In this document: one piece after another, positions 2,690-56,403 of the stretch | Position numbering within the stretch: position 1 is the first letter of the stretch | Layout: every line of letters begins with the position of its first letter | Source of the DNA: an uncultured Dehalococcoidia bacterium | GTDB lineage: Bacteria; Chloroflexota; Dehalococcoidia; DSTF01; JACRBR01 | Assembly: GCA_964599885.1 (NCBI GenBank) | Contig: CAZRHH010000004.1 | Coordinates: 9,082-73,081 of the forward strand | Reading direction: 5' to 3' | Length of the DNA: 64,000 bases | Program-made: the position numbers and the translations under genes | The notes under the pieces: generated by a model | Told to the model about the DNA's origin: nothing | The model's database searches: none | What the model saw: only the letters and a program-made list of their open reading frames with translations

Positions 2690-2718
2690 TTCACCACAGA
2701 GGCACAGAGGCACAGAGG
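2690..2718 (+). repeat. dispersed intergenic repeat TTCACCACAGAGGCACAGAGG (copy 1, 8-bp GGCACAGA unit x3)
   Basis: Direct reading: ttcaccacagaggcacagaggcacagagg. The same motif recurs at 26190, 38146, 48972 and 56370. Confidence 0.85.
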
Positions 2719-5481: not shown

Positions 5482-8025
5482 CTAGAAGCCCTGGTTCACC
5501 TCAACAAAGCGGCCGAGTGGGTTCGGCGAGAAGGCCCAGATGTGGACCAGCCAGCCGGCCTTGTCGATCCACACCGGGTTTCCCGGGCGGGACATGCACG
5601 TCGCCTGTGGCACCAGCTCTTGTACCGACTGGAAGTTGTTCCACAGACACAGCGACTCGTGGTAGTGCCAGGCGTCCTCGTTGCCGGCGAAGCCGTCCGG
5701 CGGCAGCGGGACGATATCGATCGGCATGATGTACATCAAGCCGCCGAGCTTCCAACCGCCAGGGCGGCTCGCATCAGGCTCGTACAGCAGACTCTCCGGC
5801 TGACCCGGGATGAACACATCGTCCTGGCCGGCGACCGAGCCCCTCACGAGGTGCCGGCCCTGTCCCGGAATGTAGGGCGTCGTCTGGACGAATCCAGCCG
5901 CGAACGCGGCGTTGATGTTGTTGTACTGCTCGGTGCCGACAATCGCCTCGCGAATCTGCCGGTCGACCAGCGGGCAACTCGGTGTCTGTCCCTGCGCCGT
6001 GCCCCAGAGGTCAACGACGTTAATCACGCCGTTCGCATTCCAGTCCTTGAGCCTGGTGTACCCGGGCTGGCCGAAACGCTTGTCCATCTGCGTTGCGATC
6101 TGCTGCAGGTCGGCGACGTCGACGCTGCCGTTTCCGGTCACATCGAAGCAGAAGTACGGCTTCGGGTTCTCGGCAAACTGGGTAACGATAACGCGCACGC
6201 TGTCGGTGTCGATGTTACCGTCGTTGTCCGTGACGGTGAGCGTCACAAAGTGCTCCCCAAGCGTGAACTGCTTCGAGTCGACCGGGTTCGCCGAGAGGAC
6301 CGTGGTGCCCTCCTTCCACTCGTACGTCGCGATGAAGCCGTCCGGATCCTGAGAGTTGCGGCCGTCCAGCGTCACGTGCGAGTGGTCGTTATGCGCGATC
6401 GGGCCGCTCCAGTCCTCACCCGCATCCGCAGTTGGTGGCAGCACGCCGCCGCCGGCGCTGTAGTTGTAGCCCGCCGTCAGCGTCGCGCTTCCCACGCTGT
6501 TCGTGACCGTCACATCGACGAGTTCGGCGGCGTGCGCCGGGGTGACACCGGTGAGCGTGTTGGAGTTCTGCACACTAATGTTCGTCAACGACACGCCGTC
6601 GAGCGTCACCGTCGTCTCGGATGTCGTCGTGAAGTTCGTGCCCGAGACCGTGACCGTCTGCCCGCCGTCCACCGATCCACCTGCCGGCGAAATGCCGGTC
6701 ACAGTGATCCCGCTGACCGGAGTTTCATCCGGCTTGAAGAACGTAATCTTGTTGCCGCCGTACTCGGCGACGTAGATGGTGCCGTCCGGGCCGATGGCGA
6801 CGTCGAGCGCGTTCGGCAGGTTGGACGCCAGCGTGGTGTCCGAGACCACCGAGAGGCCGTCGGCCGAGAGCTGCACGCGATGCAGCGTGCTGTCTACCCA
6901 CGACACGTACAACAGGTCGCCCTGGAGCTGTCCGCCGAAGATGCCTGACTTGTACGCGGCAATGCCGTCCGACGATGGCGGCAGCAGCGCGATCGGCGCC
7001 CGGTAGTTGCCCGAACTGGGCTCCGTACCGGCCTTGTAGTCGCACTGCAGCGGGTCGTTCAGGTTGATCCCGCGATTGCGGTTTGGATGCCCGTAGTAGC
7101 GATCCTCTTCGATGATGTTCAGCTCATCCGCCGCCTGCGCGTCGATGCCGTCGTTGGTAAAACACCCCACCGATCCCGGGCCGTACCCGGCGTTCGGGCC
7201 GTTGTCCGTGTTGTAGAAGATCCCATTCTCGGAATGGAACAGCAGGTCGTACGGGTTACGCAATCCGCTCGCGTACACGTCCACGTCGCCGCCTGTTTGC
7301 GCGACCGCGGTACCGTACGTGCTCGCCGGCGAGTACGTGATGTTCCCGTTGAATCCAGAAGCGTTGACATCGGCTACGAGGATCGCGCCGCCGGTCGGCA
7401 CTTCTTCACGCTGGAACAAGCCGCCGTTCGGGTTGATCACGCCGGCGTTCGTCGTACCGCCCTGCGCGACGTACAGCCGGCCGTCTGGCCCGAACGTCAG
7501 ACCGTTGGCCTCGTGCCCGGAGTTCGCGACGGGCAACCCCGTGATGATGTCCGTGCGCGTGCCGTAGGCGGGTCCGTCGATTCGCGTCACCTTGCCCGGA
7601 AACGAACCGGCGGGCGCCTGCCCCGCATCTCCGAAGCCGGACACCGTGTTCGTCACATAGATTGTCGGCGGGCTCGATCCATCAGCGGGGTCGAACGCGA
7701 TGCCGAACACTTCCTGAAGCTGCGCGTTCGTCGTCACCTGCTGCACCGCTGTGACGGCTTTCGTGCCGGGATTCAGCGTCAGTGCCTGGATGCGGCCGTT
7801 CACGTCGGCGACGTAGAGGCGGCCATCCGGACCGACCTCCAGCGAACCAGGCTGCAACGTGGCGAACCCGGAACCGGCAATCGTGCCGCGGATGAAATTG
7901 ATCGGCTGAACGCCGTGCGCGACATCGGCCTTGCCGATCGAGAGCATCGCCGCAACCGCGAATACCAGCGCTGCGACGAACCACCACGTCGGGAAAGCCC
8001 AGGATCGATGCACGCCTGCCTCCAT
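5482..8025 (-). CDS. large secreted multidomain protein: N-terminal signal/anchor, soluble-quinoprotein-glucose-dehydrogenase-like beta-propeller, IPT/TIG, PKD, dockerin-like Ca-binding repeats, C-terminal domain of unknown function
   Basis: 847-aa ORF. Hydrophobic N-terminus; repeated GPDGRLYVA propeller blades; ISPAGGSVDGGQTVTVSGTNF (IPT); TLTVTDNDGN (PKD); DVTGNGSVDVADL and DWNANGVINVVDL (dockerin EF-hand-like pair). Confidence 0.75.
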   Translation of the reverse strand: MEAGVHRSWAFPTWWFVAALVFAVAAMLSIGKADVAHGVQPINFIRGTIAGSGFATLQPGSLEVGPDGRLYVADVNGRIQALTLNPGTKAVTAVQQVTTNAQLQEVFGIAFDPADGSSPPTIYVTNTVSGFGDAGQAPAGSFPGKVTRIDGPAYGTRTDIITGLPVANSGHEANGLTFGPDGRLYVAQGGTTNAGVINPNGGLFQREEVPTGGAILVADVNASGFNGNITYSPASTYGTAVAQTGGDVDVYASGLRNPYDLLFHSENGIFYNTDNGPNAGYGPGSVGCFTNDGIDAQAADELNIIEEDRYYGHPNRNRGINLNDPLQCDYKAGTEPSSGNYRAPIALLPPSSDGIAAYKSGIFGGQLQGDLLYVSWVDSTLHRVQLSADGLSVVSDTTLASNLPNALDVAIGPDGTIYVAEYGGNKITFFKPDETPVSGITVTGISPAGGSVDGGQTVTVSGTNFTTTSETTVTLDGVSLTNISVQNSNTLTGVTPAHAAELVDVTVTNSVGSATLTAGYNYSAGGGVLPPTADAGEDWSGPIAHNDHSHVTLDGRNSQDPDGFIATYEWKEGTTVLSANPVDSKQFTLGEHFVTLTVTDNDGNIDTDSVRVIVTQFAENPKPYFCFDVTGNGSVDVADLQQIATQMDKRFGQPGYTRLKDWNANGVINVVDLWGTAQGQTPSCPLVDRQIREAIVGTEQYNNINAAFAAGFVQTTPYIPGQGRHLVRGSVAGQDDVFIPGQPESLLYEPDASRPGGWKLGGLMYIMPIDIVPLPPDGFAGNEDAWHYHESLCLWNNFQSVQELVPQATCMSRPGNPVWIDKAGWLVHIWAFSPNPLGRFVEVNQGF

Positions 8026-8143: not shown

Positions 8144-9034
8144 TTAGCGGCGGTCGCCCATGCCCGGGACGCGCCCGGTCCAGTCTGTGGGCGGGTTGAA
8201 CGCCCGCGCCAGCGTGGCCAGCATGCCGCGGCGCTCTTGTCCCGGCCGCAGCCGAGCCTCGATCTCGCCCTGAATGATGCTGAAGATCGACGTGAAGAAG
8301 AGGTACCAGATCGCCGCGACCGTGAGGAGTTCGAGCACCTGGAAGTTACGCGCGTACACACTCCCAGCCGTGAAGAGCAACTCTTCGTACGAAATCACGG
8401 ATGCCAGTGACGAGTTCTTGAGCATCGCATTGAACTCGTTGCCCGTCGGCGGCACGATCACGCGCATCGCTTGCGGCAGGATGACGAGCCGCATCGCCTG
8501 CAAATTCGTCATGCCAAGCGACTTCGACGCGTCCATCTGGCCCCGCTCGATCGATTCGATGCCGGCCCGGACGATCTCCGCCATGTACGCGCCCTCATTG
8601 AACGCCAAACCGATCAGCGCAGCCTGGAACGGCGAAAAGCGCAGCCAGTCCTGGTGATACTGAAACGGGCCGATGCCAAAGTCATCGGGCGCGAGCAACG
8701 GTAGTCCGGCGTAGACAAAGATGATTTGCAGCAGCAGCGGCGTCCCGCGAAAGAACCAGACGTAAACACTGGAAGCCTGACGCATGACGGGCACGCGCAG
8801 ATTGCGTGAGACCGCCGCCGCCACACCCAGTGCGATGCCCAGTACCTGCGCAAGCACCGAAATCTGCAGCGTGCGCCACGCCGCCTCGCGGATGATTGGC
8901 CGAAACAGATACTCGCGGACGGTGCCGAAATCGAAGTCGGCGAGTAGCGGTAGCGGCAAAGAGTCAAGCATTTCGCCTGGCTTCTCTGGAGTGGCGGCAG
9001 CGGCCAGCGGACGATCCGCTGGCCGCTGCATCAA
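8144..9034 (-). CDS. polar amino-acid ABC transporter permease
   Basis: HisM/GlnP-type permease with an EAA-loop-like segment (NEGAYMAEIVRAGIESI). It starts 12 bp downstream of the binding-protein gene. Confidence 0.85.
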   Translation of the reverse strand: MMQRPADRPLAAAATPEKPGEMLDSLPLPLLADFDFGTVREYLFRPIIREAAWRTLQISVLAQVLGIALGVAAAVSRNLRVPVMRQASSVYVWFFRGTPLLLQIIFVYAGLPLLAPDDFGIGPFQYHQDWLRFSPFQAALIGLAFNEGAYMAEIVRAGIESIERGQMDASKSLGMTNLQAMRLVILPQAMRVIVPPTGNEFNAMLKNSSLASVISYEELLFTAGSVYARNFQVLELLTVAAIWYLFFTSIFSIIQGEIEARLRPGQERRGMLATLARAFNPPTDWTGRVPGMGDRR

Positions 9035-9046
9035 CCACAGTTCGTG

Positions 9047-9986
9047 CTATTCGAGCTTGCCCGCTTCGAGTCCCCACTTCGCGAGAATCTCGTCCACCGT
9101 GCCGTTCTCGCTGATCTCGTCGAACGCCGCCTGCAGGGCGTCGCGCAACGCCGTGCTGCTCTTGCGGATCGCGATGCCATACGGCGCCGGTTCGATCTGG
9201 ACGGGCACCACCATCAGATCGCCATCGCTCTGCTCGGCGGTATACGCCGCTACCGGGAAGTCCGCGATGTTGGCATCCGCCTGCTCCGCCGTCACCGCCA
9301 GCACGGCCTCCGGATCGGTCTGGAACCGCCGTACGGTGATCCCGTCGTTCCCGTCGTCCTGGCATTGCTGGTCGAGACCGCCCGGATCCGCTTCGGTTCC
9401 CAGCAACAGGTCAACGTGTGTCGTGCCCTCCTGAACAGCAACCGTCTTGCCGCAAAGATCCTCCGCAGAGTTGATCCCCGACGGATTGCCGGCGGCCACA
9501 ACGATACCGGCGCCAGAATTGAAGTACTCGACGAAGTCCACCTGCTCCTTGCGCGTCGCACTTGCCGTCATCGCCGACATGATGACGTCGTAACGCTCTG
9601 CATCGAGCGCCGGCAGCAGCCCATCGAACGCGCTGTTGTCGAACGTTGCTTCGACACCCAGCACTTCCGCCAGCGCGTTCGCTATGTCGATGTCCAGACC
9701 CACCGGCTCGTTCGTCGCCTCGTCGAGGAACTCGATCGGCGCGTAGGCGATGTCCGATCCAATGTTCAGCGTGCCGTCGTCGAGTTCCTCGATGTCCGAG
9801 ATGTCGATCTCGCCCGATCCCGCCCCCGGCGTCGATCCGTCCCCTGCCGGACTTGATGCCGACGTTGCCCCCGTCGTCGGTGCGCTGTCCGGATCATCGT
9901 CATCATCGCCGCAGCCGGCCGCGAAGGCCGCCACGGCTAACAATGCGATCGATGCCAGCGTCGCCCGCTGTAGGTATGCGCGCATG
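9047..9986 (-). CDS. amino-acid ABC transporter substrate-binding lipoprotein
   Basis: Lipoprotein signal (LLAVAAFAAGCG) followed by a type-3 SBP fold (DIAYAPIEF...DVIMSAMT). Start taken at MRAYLQR; the ORF extends to 10024. Confidence 0.8.
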
Positions 9987-26189: not shown

Positions 26190-26211
26190 TTTCACCACAG
26201 AGGCACAGAGG
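26190..26211 (+). repeat. TTCACCACAGAGGCACAGAGG repeat (copy 2)
   Basis: ttcaccacagaggcacagagg directly after the peptidase stop. Confidence 0.85.
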
Positions 26212-26255
26212 CGCGGAGCGATCTGCTGGAGGATTTGACGCCTGAGCCTGCTATA

Positions 26256-26290
26256 CCGGGGCGAACACGTAGGTTCGCCCCTACCGCGGT
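26256..26290 (+). repeat. hairpin motif CCGGGGCGAACACGTAGGTTCGCCCCTACCGCGGT (5'-leader-like)
   Basis: Nine-base-pair stem GGGGCGAAC/GTTCGCCCC; a second copy lies at 49999-50032. Both sit about 130-230 nt upstream of a plus-strand gene start and are followed by a CGCTTCCC box. Confidence 0.65.
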
Positions 26291-27769: not shown

Positions 27770-28846
27770 ATGAGTGACAAGACGCGCGTGCTGATCACGT
27801 TCGCGCTGGAACCGGAACTCGTCGAGATCATTCGTGACGTCGCGCCGGAGCGGATCGAGATAGAACTGCTGGGCCAGGATCAGCGGCGGCTGCTGCGCGG
27901 GTACGCCTATCCGAGCGAGCGCGAACGCGCGGCCGTCGCCGAGGGGCTACACGGTGCGTTCGATCAGGCGGAGATCGTGTTCGGATTTTGGGGCACGGAG
28001 CTGCACTCGGCGCTGACGTATGCCAACGCGAAAGAAAGCATCGCGGGGCCGAAGACGTTGCGGGAGGCGGCTCCAAAGCTCAAGTGGATCCAGCTCACGA
28101 GCGCTGGCGCCGACAGGCTGCTGAACAGCGGCTTCACCGAAGATGGCATCACGGTGACGACGGTCAGCGGGCTCCACGCGACGCCGATCGGCGAGTTCGT
28201 GATCAGCGCGATGCTGATGTGGGCGAAAGGTGCGCACCGCACGATGCGCGCGCAACTCAAGCACGAATGGACGCGGTTCGCGCCGTCCGAGCTGTACGGC
28301 AAGACCGTGGGTGTCGTGGGCATTGGCCACATCGGCGCCGAGGTCGGGCGGCTGGCGAAGGCGTTCGGCTGCCGCGTCATCGCGACACGCCGATCGGCAA
28401 CATCGATCACGAACGAGCCATACGCCGATGAGATCATGCCGTACGCCGAGCTACCGCGGCTGCTGGCCGAAAGCGACTACGTGGCGGTGTGCGTGCCGCT
28501 GACGCCTGACACCCGCGGCATGATCGGCGAAACGGAACTACGGGCGATGAAGCCCACGGCGTTCCTCGTGAACATCGCCCGCGGACCGGTGATCGACGAA
28601 GCGGCACTGATCGTCGCACTGCGCGACGGGTGGATCGGCGGCGCGGCGCTCGATGTGTTCGAGCGGGAGCCGCTCCCGCCGGACAGCCCACTGTGGGATC
28701 TGGAGAACGCGATCCTGACGCCGCACATCTCTGGTGGCACGGAGATCTACAACCAGCGTGCTGCGCGCATCTTCGCGGATAACCTGCGGCGCTATCTGGC
28801 GGGCGATCCGCTCGAGAACGTCGTCGATCCCGCGCGCGGGTACTGA
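27770..28846 (+). CDS. D-isomer-specific 2-hydroxyacid dehydrogenase (second paralogue)
   Basis: ATG at 27770 preceded by GGAGGGAG. GVVGIGHIGAEVGRLAKAFGCRV; paralogous to the gene at 2771. Confidence 0.8.
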   Translation: MSDKTRVLITFALEPELVEIIRDVAPERIEIELLGQDQRRLLRGYAYPSERERAAVAEGLHGAFDQAEIVFGFWGTELHSALTYANAKESIAGPKTLREAAPKLKWIQLTSAGADRLLNSGFTEDGITVTTVSGLHATPIGEFVISAMLMWAKGAHRTMRAQLKHEWTRFAPSELYGKTVGVVGIGHIGAEVGRLAKAFGCRVIATRRSATSITNEPYADEIMPYAELPRLLAESDYVAVCVPLTPDTRGMIGETELRAMKPTAFLVNIARGPVIDEAALIVALRDGWIGGAALDVFEREPLPPDSPLWDLENAILTPHISGGTEIYNQRAARIFADNLRRYLAGDPLENVVDPARGY

Positions 28847-28868
28847 TTGTTCGCTCTGTTTCACCGCA

Positions 28869-28909
28869 AAGACGCAAAGGACGCAAAGGGGCGCAAAGGT
28901 TTGAAGGGT
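28869..28909 (+). repeat. GCAAAGG-unit repeat (left arm of the inverted pair flanking the GxxExxY gene)
   Basis: tttcaccgcaaagacgcaaaggacgcaaaggggcgcaaagg begins with TTCACC like the CACAGAGG family. Confidence 0.8.
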
Positions 28910-28932
28910 AAAGAACCGGAAAGGGAGTCGGG

Positions 28933-29385
28933 ATGGCTGAATCGAAGGAACCCAGGGTAAGCGAGCCCCCGCAGAAGCTCGCGCTAGATGCGAATCGCGT
29001 CTCGAACCTTGTCATCGGCGCGTGTATTGAGGTGCATCGAACACTCGGTCCGGGGTTGCTTGAGTCGGCGTATGAGGAGTGCGTGGCACACGAACTCGAT
29101 CTGCGCGGGATCGCATATGTGCGGCAGCGCCCTTTGCGCGTCGAGTACAAGGGTATCTTCCTTGAGGCGGCGTATCGGTTGGATCTCGTTGTTGCCGATA
29201 ACGTGATCGTCGAACTCAAGGCCGTCGACGCGTTGTTGCCGGTGCATCAGGCGCAGATCCTGACGTACCTGAAACTGACAGGGCTGACGCTCGGTCTGCT
29301 CATCAACTTCAACCTGCCGATCCTCCGTGACGGAATCAAACGCGTCGCCAACCGCCTGCCTGAAAACACAGTCGCGCCAAAGTGA
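28933..29385 (+). CDS. GxxExxY protein (PD-(D/E)xK nuclease-fold family)
   Basis: [14 protein letters not shown] is the GxxExxY signature; 150 aa; bracketed by inverted repeats. Confidence 0.8.
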
Positions 29386-29416
29386 TCCAGCAGGCTAGGA
29401 GTTCTCCCCTCTCGAT

Positions 29417-29456
29417 CCTTTGCGCTCCTTTGCGCTCTTTGCGCCTTTGCGGTGAA
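29417..29456 (-). repeat. GCAAAGG-unit repeat (right arm, inverted orientation)
   Basis: cctttgcgctcctttgcgctctttgcgcctttgcggtgaa is the reverse complement of the left arm at 28869. Confidence 0.8.
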
Positions 29457-29467
29457 CCGGCTGTCGC

Positions 29468-30133
29468 ATGCAACTAGCGATCGATTGCGCGTCCGATGAA
29501 CCGGGTATCGCGCTCGCCGTTGACGGCGTCATCGGACTAAGCGCCACGTGGGTGACGCAGCAGAACCATTCCGTGGAACTGTTGCCGAATATCGATCGGT
29601 TGTTGAGCGAAGCCGGGCGCACGAAGGCTGACGTCGACACGGTGTTCGTCGATCTCGGACCGGGCGGGTATGCAGCGTTGCGCGTCGGTGTGAGCGTCGC
29701 GAAGGCACTGGCGCACGGGCTTGGCGTGCCGATCGTGGGCATCGGCCGGCTGGAGCTGGATGCGTACAGCGTCGTCGCGGATGCTGGCGAGCGGCGGATC
29801 GTCGCTCTGCATCGCGCCGGGCGCGGCGAGCTTGCTTTGGGGGCGTATCGCGCGTCCAGTGGAGGCTGGCGCGAGGAACTGGCACCGCGACTCGGAAAGT
29901 CGGATGCGGTCGCGGGCTGCTTCGAGCGCGACGACATCGTCACGGGTGATCTCGATGATTCGCTGCGCGCGACGGTACGGGACGCGGGCGGGCACGCGGC
30001 GTCGGCGTACGCCCACCGCGTCGTCGCGCTGGCAGCACTCGGGCACGCGCGTCTCAGCGCCGGGCGCACGGATGATCCAGCGACGCTGGTGCCCCTATAC
30101 TTGCGTGCGCCAGCGATTGGACCGCAGGGTTAG
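29468..30133 (+). CDS. tsaB: tRNA threonylcarbamoyladenosine biosynthesis protein TsaB (YeaZ)
   Basis: MQLAIDCASDEPGIALA..., an inactive Kae1-like ASKHA fold; 221 aa. Confidence 0.75.
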   Translation: MQLAIDCASDEPGIALAVDGVIGLSATWVTQQNHSVELLPNIDRLLSEAGRTKADVDTVFVDLGPGGYAALRVGVSVAKALAHGLGVPIVGIGRLELDAYSVVADAGERRIVALHRAGRGELALGAYRASSGGWREELAPRLGKSDAVAGCFERDDIVTGDLDDSLRATVRDAGGHAASAYAHRVVALAALGHARLSAGRTDDPATLVPLYLRAPAIGPQG

Positions 30134-38145: not shown

Positions 38146-38199
38146 TATCACCACAGAGACACAGAGACACAGAGGCACAGAGGCACAGAGTCGCAGAGG
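38146..38199 (+). repeat. TTCACCACAGAG-family repeat (copy 3, extended: 6 octamer units)
   Basis: tatcaccacagagacacagagacacagaggcacagaggcacagagtcgcagagg. Confidence 0.85.
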
Positions 38200-38874: not shown

Positions 38875-39916
38875 CGGCCGACTACCTGACCCCGATACCG
38901 CGATCCCGCTCGTCGAGACGATCGACCGCTCGGGGCGGCCGCTGCGTGATCTGCGGATCTCGGTGACGGACCGCTGCAACTTCCGGTGCCGGTACTGCAT
39001 GCCGCGCGAAGTGTTCGGCGCCGACTTCGCGTTTCTGCCGCGCGCGGAGATCCTGACCTTCGAAGAGATCACGCGGCTGGCGTGCATCTTCGCGGCGCAT
39101 GGCGTGCGCAAGTTCCGGCTGACAGGCGGCGAACCGCTATTGCGTAACGATCTGCCGTCGCTCGTACGCATGCTGTCGCAGATCGCGGACGTCGACATCG
39201 CGCTGACGACGAACGGATCGCTGCTCGCGCAGCAGGCGCGCGATCTGAAGGCGGCGGGATTGCAGCGCATCACCGTCAGTCTGGACTCGCTCGATGACGG
39301 CGTGTTCCGCGAGATGAACGATGCGGACTTCGACGTGGCGCGCGTGCTCGAAGGCATCGATGCGGCCGCGGCGGCCGGACTGGCGCCGGTAAAGATTAAC
39401 GCCGTCATCCGTCGGGGCGTGAACGATCACACGGCCGTCGACCTTGCGCGGCACTTCAAGCGCAGCGGTCACATTGTTCGCTTCATTGAGTACATGGATG
39501 TCGGCGCCACGAACGGCTGGCGGCTCGACGACGTGGTCCCCGGCGACGAACTTGTGCGGATGATCGGCGCCGAGATGCCGCTTATGCCCGCCGAAGCGCA
39601 GTATCGAGGCGAGGTGGCGCAGCGCTGGCGTTATGTCGATGGCAGCGGCGAGATCGGGCTGATCACTTCGGTCACGCAGCCGTTCTGCGGCGATTGCACG
39701 CGCGCGCGGCTCTCCGCGGACGGCTCGCTGTATACGTGCCTCTTTGCCACGTCCGGGACGGATCTGCGCGGTCCGATCCGTGCCGGAGTGACGGACGAAG
39801 TCCTCGCCAGTATCGTCGGCGGCGTCTGGAACCGGCGCGACGACCGCTATTCGGAGTTGCGCGCCGAGTCGGCGGCGCCGCCACAGCGCATCGAGATGTC
39901 GTACATCGGCGGGTAG
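38855..39916 (+). CDS. moaA: GTP 3',8-cyclase (radical SAM)
   Basis: [14 protein letters not shown] (CxxxCxxC) and C-terminal MoaA Cys cluster. The start is uncertain; it overlaps the rdgB 3' end by up to 20 nt. Confidence 0.85.
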
Positions 39917-48971: not shown

Positions 48972-49000
48972 TTCACCACAGGGGCACAGAGGCACAGAGG
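48972..49000 (+). repeat. TTCACCACAGAG-family repeat (copy 4)
   Basis: ttcaccacaggggcacagaggcacagagg. Confidence 0.85.
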
Positions 49001-49198
49001 ATTCATTTGGATGGGAAGGGCGATCTCGCTGAATTCGAGCCTTGCGATGACCGAGGAGGACGAACCTAAAGGTTCTTCGTGCGTTGATGGTGCAGGAATT
49101 CGGCGGTTGCGCCTGCCCGACCGGGACGGACCTGAAGGTTCGTCCCTACCTCGATGCGGGGCGCCCGACCTCTCACTCCCCACCTCTCACCGTCCCAA

Positions 49199-52646: not shown

Positions 52647-52764
52647 GGCGCCGGCGGTTCTAATTCAACGCAAAGGCGCAGTGCTCCGCGCGCTGTGGCT
52701 GCCGTATAAGCGTGGCTTGGGCGCGGAAGCTCCACGTTGCCGCGCATCCGTGGGTCGATGTCCG

Positions 52765-52793
52765 GCGGAGCTGAAGCTCCGCGGCTACATCCG
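52765..52793 (+). repeat. palindromic REP-like element (copy 2) GGCGGAGCTGAAGCTCCGCGGCTACATCC
   Basis: Same hairpin as at 19621; lies 3' of the PPIase gene. Confidence 0.7.
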
Positions 52794-56369: not shown

Positions 56370-56403
56370 GTTCACCACAGAGGCACAGAGGGGCAGAAGG
56401 GGA
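56370..56403 (+). repeat. TTCACCACAGAG-family repeat (copy 5)
   Basis: ttcaccacagaggcacagaggggcagaagggga. Confidence 0.85.

Follow-up and report, generated by a model that had tools for sequence, protein, structure and literature searches.

In the REPIN/RAYT systems, a gene has inverted repeats of its own class on either side, the repeats also occur as gene-less doublets, and the inheritance is vertical (PMC3337134, PMC3116915, 10.1101/2022.05.22.493013). A second arrangement of this kind is Coxiella's intervening sequence (IVS), an element of 428 nt with an S23p open reading frame (ORF) and a 28-bp terminal stem that is cleaved by RNase III (PMC4990558). Here, we describe a stretch of 64,000 nt from an uncultured Dehalococcoidia bacterium (contig CAZRHH010000004.1), below called the window, in which a small gene of the GxxExxY family is enclosed by a pair of inverted arrays of 7-nt units, the arms. 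The interval 28860-29456 may represent one copy of a widespread array-armed minigene cassette that resembles REPIN/RAYT and whose arms are putative cis sites of its own nuclease, a reading to which we assign a probability of about 0.4. Gene and arms travel together across phyla, and the arms are also found without the gene, either in the form of palindromes or as solo arms. The element looks like a selfish one related in style to the repetitive extragenic palindromic (REP) sequences, and apparently an undescribed one, and not like a classical transposon or a repeat that arose by chance; no published description of GxxExxY arms was found in the literature searched.

A GxxExxY gene between inverted heptamer arrays

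An inverted-repeat search of the window recovered two arms of 45 nt (28860-28904 and 29412-29456), which are 87% complementary (39/45 positions). The arms proper cover 28860-28899 and 29417-29456 and contain five of the mismatches, all of them at spacer bases; the sixth is located just interior to the arms. Each arm consists of a TTCAC head followed by four CGCAAAG units, which are separated by spacers of 1, 2, and 3 nt in both arms, and all eight units are identical across the left and right arms. An earlier note on this DNA had described the inverted pair as perfect, which does not hold at the spacers. It had placed the right arm correctly (29417-29456) and the left arm about 9-10 nt off, the string that it quoted being located at 28859-28899 and not at 28869-28909. 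Its main observations, that a 150-aa ORF (28933-29385) is bracketed by an inverted repeat and that gene and arms form a discrete cassette, were confirmed, and the ends of the cassette are sharp, at TTCAC...GTGAA. A chance origin of the arrays is excluded because their counts are far above the expectation: the window contains five heptamer arrays of at least three units, whereas 100 dinucleotide shuffles gave 0.01 on average and never more than 1. It also contains 15 occurrences of GCAAAGG (4.7 expected) and nine of TTCACCRCARAG (0.9 expected).

In profile searches, the product of the ORF matched both TIGR04256 (GxxExxY; 148.1 bits, cutoff 35) and PF13366 (PDDEXK_3; 147.2 bits, cutoff 22). Alignments of 23 and 72 sequences showed no variation at the residues G41, E44, Y47, D84, E94, K96, Q108, and Y112, and the window protein has all of them, laid out as G41xxE44xxY47, D84, E94-x-K96, and Q108xxxY112. 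The protein is predicted to adopt a minimal Cas4/RecB-like PD-(D/E)XK fold, that is, a restriction-endonuclease-like alpha/beta fold; no solved structure was matched by sequence. It differs from the Cas4 and RecB nucleases in its size of about 120 aa, in that it lacks the cysteines of the Fe-S cluster and the N-terminal extension, and in that it has no CRISPR context. The sequence similarity is also weak, with PADLOC returning only weak Cas4 matches (E 0.04), and a PHROGs search with the GxxExxY protein gave nothing. Clustering at 50% identity yields 23,240 clusters (E <= 1e-3), which makes the family a very large one. A number of proteins of 260-295 aa (P0361-P0370 and others) contain two GxxExxY domains each and represent tandem cassettes that have fused or else adjacent copies that are read through.

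We fetched 80 metagenome loci that encode homologs with 49-64% identity, and at each locus aligned the upstream flank to the reverse complement of the downstream flank. The best match was the same kind of arm in almost every locus. With a strict pattern of at least two C[AG]C N [AG]AG units and spacers of 1-4 nt, applied to the loci with flanks of at least 150 nt (n = 71), an array on the + strand upstream and one on the - strand downstream were found within 150 nt in 52 of the 71 loci, a single arm in nine, and none in three. The heads of the arms point outward in the cassettes, and the inner distances are mostly 378-530 nt, with a core of 351 nt. The conservation ends at the TTCAC head (positions -5 to -1: T79, T83, C79, A106, and C98 of 110), beyond which there is no consensus. 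The arms have 3-4 CRCNRAG units that follow each other every 8-10 nt. A typical arm contains three units with spacers of 1 and then 2 nt, and the pattern of spacer lengths is equal in both arms in 46/58 cassettes. The annotated homologs often start with ...NRRDAETQS... and end with ...SASPRLCGE..., which correspond to a translated ACCGCAGAGACGCAGAG... and to the reverse complement ending TGCGGTGAA, respectively.

The same package was found in isolates. In Bacteroides finegoldii, the gene is located between radA and a gene for a flavin adenine dinucleotide (FAD) protein, with GGTTCACCACAGAGGACGCAGAGGACACGGAGG as the left arm and ...CTCTGTGACCTCTGTGTCCTCTGTGGTGAA as the right arm, and in Sphingomonas parapaucimobilis it is located between fabD and fabG, with TTCACGCGAAGGCGCGAGGACGCGAAG. 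Gemmatirosa and Bernardetia have the package in a looser form. Most of the other GxxExxY copies are thus bounded by the same kind of arm, as the earlier note had anticipated, both in the metagenome loci and in the Bacteroides and Sphingomonas isolates. The same head and unit are present in the Chloroflexota (the window), Bacteroides, Sphingomonas, Gemmatirosa, and Verrucomicrobia-type contigs, and the sequence of the arms is conserved across phyla beyond mere complementarity. In a plasmid collection, only seven GxxExxY copies were identified, all on non-mobilizable replicons. A subfamily of the cassettes (L007, L009, L010, L013, L040, and L055) has an additional hairpin directly interior to both arms, such as TTTCCTTTCTGTTGAGAGGACAGAAAGGAAA, which extends the inverted repeat to about 75 nt.

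Gene-less arrays, empty sites, and the age of the insertion

The fetched loci also contain many facing + and - arrays that are 4-130 nt apart and have no gene between them, some of them in tandem series. A scan of viral contigs for TCACCACAGAGNCACAGAG yielded 80 loci, 684 kb in total, with 343 arrays and 104 facing (+,-) pairs, nearly all of which are gene-less. Among 92 distinct mini palindromes, 43% of the outer flanks contain at least five T in 8 nt, compared to 6% in the background, and the T-rich flanks therefore make these palindromes similar to bidirectional intrinsic terminators. An alignment of cassette and palindrome within one contig (L056) was discarded, as it gave no clean junction and a complex palindrome-gene-half-palindrome arrangement.

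In the window itself, there is a single GxxExxY gene. Besides the two cassette arms, we identified five solo arrays of the TTCAC + (CACAGAG-G)n type, all of which are intergenic; they have the form TTCACC(ACAGAGGC)n, and the TTCACC head noted earlier as common to the arms and the CACAGAGG family is thus borne out. A scan of the window revealed no GxxExxY pseudogene remnants beside the solo arrays. One weak GxxExxY match (39485-39682) was rejected, since it falls inside a radical-SAM/molybdenum-cofactor (MoaA-type) gene.

Three states of the same junction were observed between nuoF and nuoG in related Verrucomicrobia-type contigs. In L239/L240 and P0249, the site is empty, with a gap of 5 nt (TGA-TTTCG-ATG). 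In L238, it is occupied by a gene-less palindrome that consists of TCAAC + CGCAAAG x4, a loop of 8 nt, and the inverted copy, and in L085 by a full cassette with CGCAGAG x3 arms. The NuoF proteins are 93% identical between the palindrome-bearing and the empty contigs, and each of these is 87-89% identical to that of the cassette-bearing contig. Empty sites in relatives, one of the expectations raised for the cassette, were thus found here, and at the site of the window the closest relative (L093) has no gene. Contig L238 also has an extra 221-aa ORF without a Pfam match between nuoE and nuoF (1590-2000), and the nuoE-nuoF interval contains a hairpin-rich stretch of about 400 nt with tandem CGATTCAACGGTTCAACG repeats at its end.

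These junctions show gain or loss at the DNA level without target duplication. Among 55 cassettes, no target-site duplication of 2-5 nt was detected with the boundaries offset by 3-8 nt, the counts being equal to the shuffled expectation, and none was seen at the nuoF-nuoG and dehydrogenase-tsaB junctions. Target-site duplications just outside the cassette, for which the earlier note had proposed to look, were therefore not found at any plausible boundary. Its description of the geometry as that of a miniature inverted-repeat transposable element (MITE) or a mobile cassette holds for the discrete cassette, the inverted ends, and the empty sites, and fails for the duplication. In the case of a classical non-autonomous MITE-like element, a DDE transposase acting in trans would bind the terminal inverted repeats and move the element, with GxxExxY as a passenger. 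The sharp-ended terminal inverted repeats, the short gene-less derivatives, and the empty sites fit such an element. We nevertheless regard this explanation as highly improbable. The cut-and-paste reading fails because target-site duplication, a defining feature, was not found. In addition, none of the sampled copies was found to have a transposase gene next to it, the same small gene is the cargo in every case, and the copies are divergent (53-65% identity between syntenic copies) rather than near-identical. Recent mobility, as it would be seen from an identical protein in several contexts, was also rejected: P0019, an identical homolog in 24 contigs, is found at one site only, between nuoF and nuoG.

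The abundance of gene-less palindromes bears on another explanation, according to which host processes make and keep tandem-heptamer palindromes of an STRR/REP-like and terminator-like kind (STRR, short tandemly repeated repetitive sequence), and the GxxExxY genes, and separately the four-helix-bundle genes described below, are selfish genes that insert into the loop, so that the arms are a split target. Consistent with this, the gene-less palindromes far outnumber the gene-bearing ones and occur without a nearby GxxExxY gene, and their outer flanks are terminator-like. Furthermore, one relative (L098) has many other intergenic heptamer palindromes, one of them at the dehydrogenase-tsaB junction, and at one and the same junction, nuoF-nuoG, L238 has a palindrome where L085 has a cassette. 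However, the unit grammar is tied to the cargo family, with CRCNRAG for GxxExxY and other units for the four-helix-bundle genes, and it is conserved across phyla along with the gene, which would not be expected of palindromes that arise independently from host processes. The L238 palindrome and the L085 cassette also differ in both unit type and unit number. On balance, homing into pre-existing palindromes seems unlikely.

To place the window copy in time, relatives of its site were recovered by a protein search and contig look-ups. A GxxExxY gene is present at the dehydrogenase-tsaB site in L094-L097, where TsaB is 74-75% identical to that of the window, and in L003, a Dehalococcoidia metagenome-assembled genome with a TsaB identity of 60%. 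In the closest relative (L093, TsaB 81%), the two genes are separated by 45 nt, the GxxExxY gene is absent, and a solo right arm, CCTGCGCCTCTGTGGTGAA, is present. In L098 (TsaB 68%), the gene is also absent, and a different heptamer palindrome is located at the site. Among the syntenic copies, the GxxExxY proteins are 53-65% identical, compared to 74-84% for TsaB and 77-88% for the dehydrogenase. The arm type also differs among the orthologous cassettes, being CGCAAAG in the window, CRCGGAG in L094, and CGCAGAG in L096. The window copy is thus an old, vertically inherited insertion between the 2-hydroxyacid dehydrogenase gene and tsaB, because occupied sites are found in relatives with TsaB identities as low as 60%. 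The suggestion in the earlier note that the inverted repeats indicate how such genes spread accordingly gives way, for this copy, to an old insertion rather than a recent hop.

Two of the relatives contain a tandem duplication of about 165 nt (L096, 2060-2290; L097, 3310-3540), which runs from about the last 40 nt of the dehydrogenase gene through the left arm into the beginning of the GxxExxY ORF. In this copy, the motif glutamate is replaced (GPGLLKSAY), which suggests decay.

Constraint on the arms and a second cargo family

The positions of the arms differ in how they vary. At position 2 of the unit, which is A or G, the left and right arms of one cassette agree in 93% of the comparisons, as compared to 52% between loci, and the units of one arm agree in 95%. 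The corresponding values are 93% vs 75% at unit position 5 and 63% vs 41% at position 4, and for the spacer bases the agreement is 54% vs 49%. The mismatches between arms include 41 that are G.U-compatible and 47 that are A.C in the sense RNA, so there is no excess of G.U, and a wobble signature of the sense RNA was rejected. The constraint therefore acts on the units rather than on the pairing. The arms of a cassette do, at the same time, pair better with each other than with arms of that type at other loci (-48.1 vs -41.5 kcal/mol, 32/39, p = 4.5e-7). The duplex of the window arms has an energy of -63.7 kcal/mol, and in the RNA folding of 28850-29466 the structure is closed by a stem of about 47 bp that the arms form, in the minimum-free-energy and the centroid prediction alike (z = -3.9). 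The unit type is shared with other arrays on the same contig in 55/68 cases (33.7 expected) and between the nearest-neighbour proteins in 41/58 cases (29.9 expected).

The pairing is central to the main rival explanation, an IVS-like RNA element. In this model, the cassette is co-transcribed with the host operon, the arms pair, RNase III cuts the stem, and the minigene is excised or insulated, which makes the insertion harmless, as for the ORF-carrying IVS of the 23S rRNA; the arms are kept for pairing and not for recognition by a protein. The window stem and the better pairing of own arms are as expected for such an element, and so is the tight placement of the cassettes between co-directional genes (nuoF-nuoG, fabD-fabG, radA-FAD, and dehydrogenase-tsaB). 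The Coxiella stem that is cut by RNase III is a precedent (PMC4990558), and genes of the S23p family occur with the same inverted-array geometry in our data. However, a stem leaves the conservation of TTCAC and CRCNRAG across phyla unexplained, as well as the 95% homogeneity of the units within an arm. The spacers show no covariation, G.U is not favoured over A.C, solo arms persist without a partner, and there was no match to Rfam, neither for the whole window at the gathering thresholds nor for the locus at E <= 5, and this includes the rRNA families. An IVS-like element is physically plausible and may coexist with cis sites for a protein; as the explanation of the arms, we consider it rather doubtful.

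Geometry of the same type was found around a second, unrelated kind of cargo. In viral contigs L223-L237, the genes with a PF05635 domain (four-helix-bundle, S23p/Avd-like) are flanked by inverted tandem-heptamer arrays at every distinct locus. The units are exactly 7 nt and differ between these loci (TCGGCNN, AGTGGTN, TAGGGTG, and GAGTAGG). The unit sequence is thus cargo-specific, with CRCNRAG for GxxExxY and other units for the four-helix-bundle genes. Tentatively, the two kinds of cassettes could together represent an unrecognised class of prokaryotic selfish elements, in which a small protein recognises inverted 7-nt arrays, and the element copies itself without target duplication into short intergenic gaps and seeds terminator-like palindromes and solo arrays. 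If so, a common origin would unite the rRNA intervening sequences, the heptamer repeats of the STRR type, and two "mystery" families of paralogous minigenes that are among the largest.

For the GxxExxY cassettes, we favour the reading in which the arms are cis sites at the DNA level. They would be recognised by the nuclease of the cassette, as REP sequences flank and serve the RAYT, because the units are specific to the cargo, conserved in different phyla, and homogenised inside each cassette, with the spacers drifting. Spread would be rare; the nuclease would initiate copying, without a duplication, into the short intervals that separate co-directional genes. Afterwards, the copies would persist vertically and decay into terminator-like palindromes and solo arms.

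Several observations weigh against the proposal that the nuclease acts on the arms. No alignment column in the protein covaries cleanly with the unit type as a specificity residue would, and the association between protein and unit is modest. The four-helix-bundle proteins are non-nucleases and yet have the same gene geometry; a geometry common to them therefore points to a shared process that is independent of the cargo. No GxxExxY gene was found in the 684 kb of array-rich viral contigs, so palindromes are possible far from any copy, and the solo arrays of the window are of the CACAGAG type, which does not match the CGCAAAG units of the cassette arms. Among distant members of the family, Treponema has a simple inverted repeat and Prevotella none. 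Finally, P0019 occurs in one context each time, and the site of the window has been occupied since a deep divergence, so that mobility, if any, is very slow.

Features of the window and comparison with described systems

The coordinates of the features in the window are listed in Table 1. In the wider neighbourhood of the cassette, lysA is located upstream and ndk downstream, both on the + strand like the dehydrogenase gene, the ORF, and tsaB. A promoter scan of the locus found none, and the only terminator-like site, a weak one, is located at the end of the dehydrogenase gene.

Table 1. Positions, strands, and characteristics of the cassette, its neighbours, and the solo arrays in the window.
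Feature	Position	Strand	Characteristics
Solo array, TTCAC + CACAGAG x3	2690..2717	+	Same head and unit grammar as the cassette arms; no partner arm
Solo array, TTCAC + CACAGAG, CACAGAG, CGCGGAG	26191..26218	+	Upstream of lysA; relative L098 has a TTCAC-headed heptamer array at the equivalent place
2-hydroxyacid dehydrogenase gene (upstream neighbour)	27773..28846	+	Co-oriented; left border of the insertion site, conserved in relatives
Left arm	28860..28899	+	Head TTCAC at 28860-28864; CGCAAAG at 28865-71, 28873-79, 28882-88, and 28892-98; spacers A, GA, GGG
Shine-Dalgarno-like AAAGGGAG	28920..28927	+	Putative, from sequence; between left arm and ORF, 5 nt ahead of the ATG
GxxExxY/PDDEXK_3 gene, 150 aa	28933..29385	+	Motifs intact; predicted fold Cas4/RecB-like
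Right arm (inverted copy)	29417..29456	-	Four CGCAAAG; spacers G, AG, GAG; head is GTGAA at 29452-29456 on the + strand
tsaB (downstream neighbour)	29468..30133	+	Co-oriented; start 11 nt past the right head
Solo array, ATCAC head + six units (CACAGAG x5, CGCAGAG)	38147..38198	+	
Solo array, TTCAC + CACAGGG, CACAGAG, CACAGAG	48972..48999	+	
Degenerate sixth solo array	52664..52676		
Solo array, TTCAC + CACAGAG x2	56371..56390	+	Followed by degenerate units and then a GC hairpin

The solo arrays are all on the + strand, irrespective of how the flanking genes are oriented: three of them are located between genes on the + strand and two between genes on the - strand. The GC skew is positive across most of the window, and the strand preference of the solo arrays may represent a replication-strand bias (n = 5-6). 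A second common module of about 60 nt is present at 26245-26285 and 49105-49150 and ends in a hairpin, GGGGCGAAC...GGTTCGCCCCTACC. The sequence AGGTTCGYCCCTAC occurs exactly at 26271 and 49136, i.e., downstream of two solo arrays, and a hairpin similar to the GGGGCGAAC...GGTTCGCCCCTACC type is also found near 52765. In L098, a relative with 3.6 Mb, intergenic tandem-heptamer arrays, often in inverted pairs and STRR-like, are located at 130-202, 5999-6042, 7241-7290, 8668-8744, and 9840-9984. The array upstream of lysA in this relative is TTCAC-headed (TTCACCAGTCACCAGCCACCAGCC...) and contains CCACCAGC, the complement of the Chi octamer of E. coli.

The GxxExxY family is very large and has a puzzling multicopy distribution. 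The packaged arms, the gene-less arms, the three junction states, and the geometry shared with the S23p family, taken together, make what was a curiosity of annotation into an element model that can be tested. It supplies concrete candidate cis sites, the TTCAC + CRCNRAG units, and intergenic palindromes and terminators of many phyla might derive from such elements.

Among the described systems, REPIN/RAYT is similar in that an enzyme gene is located between inverted repeats, which in our case, too, may belong to a class dispersed through the genome, in that intergenic, gene-less doublets and singlets occur, and in the lack of target-site duplication, the long-term vertical inheritance, and the lineage-specific flavour of the repeat. 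The enzyme differs, being an HUH/Y1 (IS200-like) transposase there and a predicted PD-(D/E)XK Cas4-like nuclease in the GxxExxY cassette, and a single GTAG-headed hairpin there corresponds to arrays of 3-4 short TTCAC-headed units here. The GxxExxY family is also multicopy, each copy having its own arms, and the element spans many phyla. The IVSs of the 23S rRNA (in Leptospira, and in Coxiella with S23p; PMC4990558) are likewise units of 430-600 bp with a small ORF and terminal complements that form a long stem, are placed in the sense orientation in the host transcript, and are regarded as selfish, with unknown means of movement. However, they are located in helices 9, 25, or 45 of the rRNA rather than at junctions of protein-coding genes, their cargo is a four-helix-bundle protein rather than a nuclease, and it is the GxxExxY arms that have tandem units and a conserved sequence.

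The Correia/NEMIS MITEs are similar in being short intergenic elements bounded by terminal inverted repeats, often co-transcribed, with hairpins that can act on the RNA. They differ in the TA duplication and the transposase-type mechanism, whereas the GxxExxY cassette has no duplication and has a long form with a nuclease gene. The cyanobacterial STRRs, reportedly described by Mazel and coworkers in 1990, are said to be tandem 7-nt intergenic repeats with a lineage-specific unit sequence and an unknown function. They share the tandem 7-nt intergenic units with the arrays studied here, and L098 carries many such arrays, some in inverted pairs; to our knowledge, STRRs have been described neither as inverted arms around a specific gene nor as TTCAC-headed. 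An integron gene cassette differs in having a single attC at the 3' end and an integrase/attI, as compared to two symmetric arms and housekeeping neighbours in our case. There is a fair chance that the two cargo families together define a new class of elements; otherwise, they would be variants of the REP/RAYT-like and IVS-like kinds.

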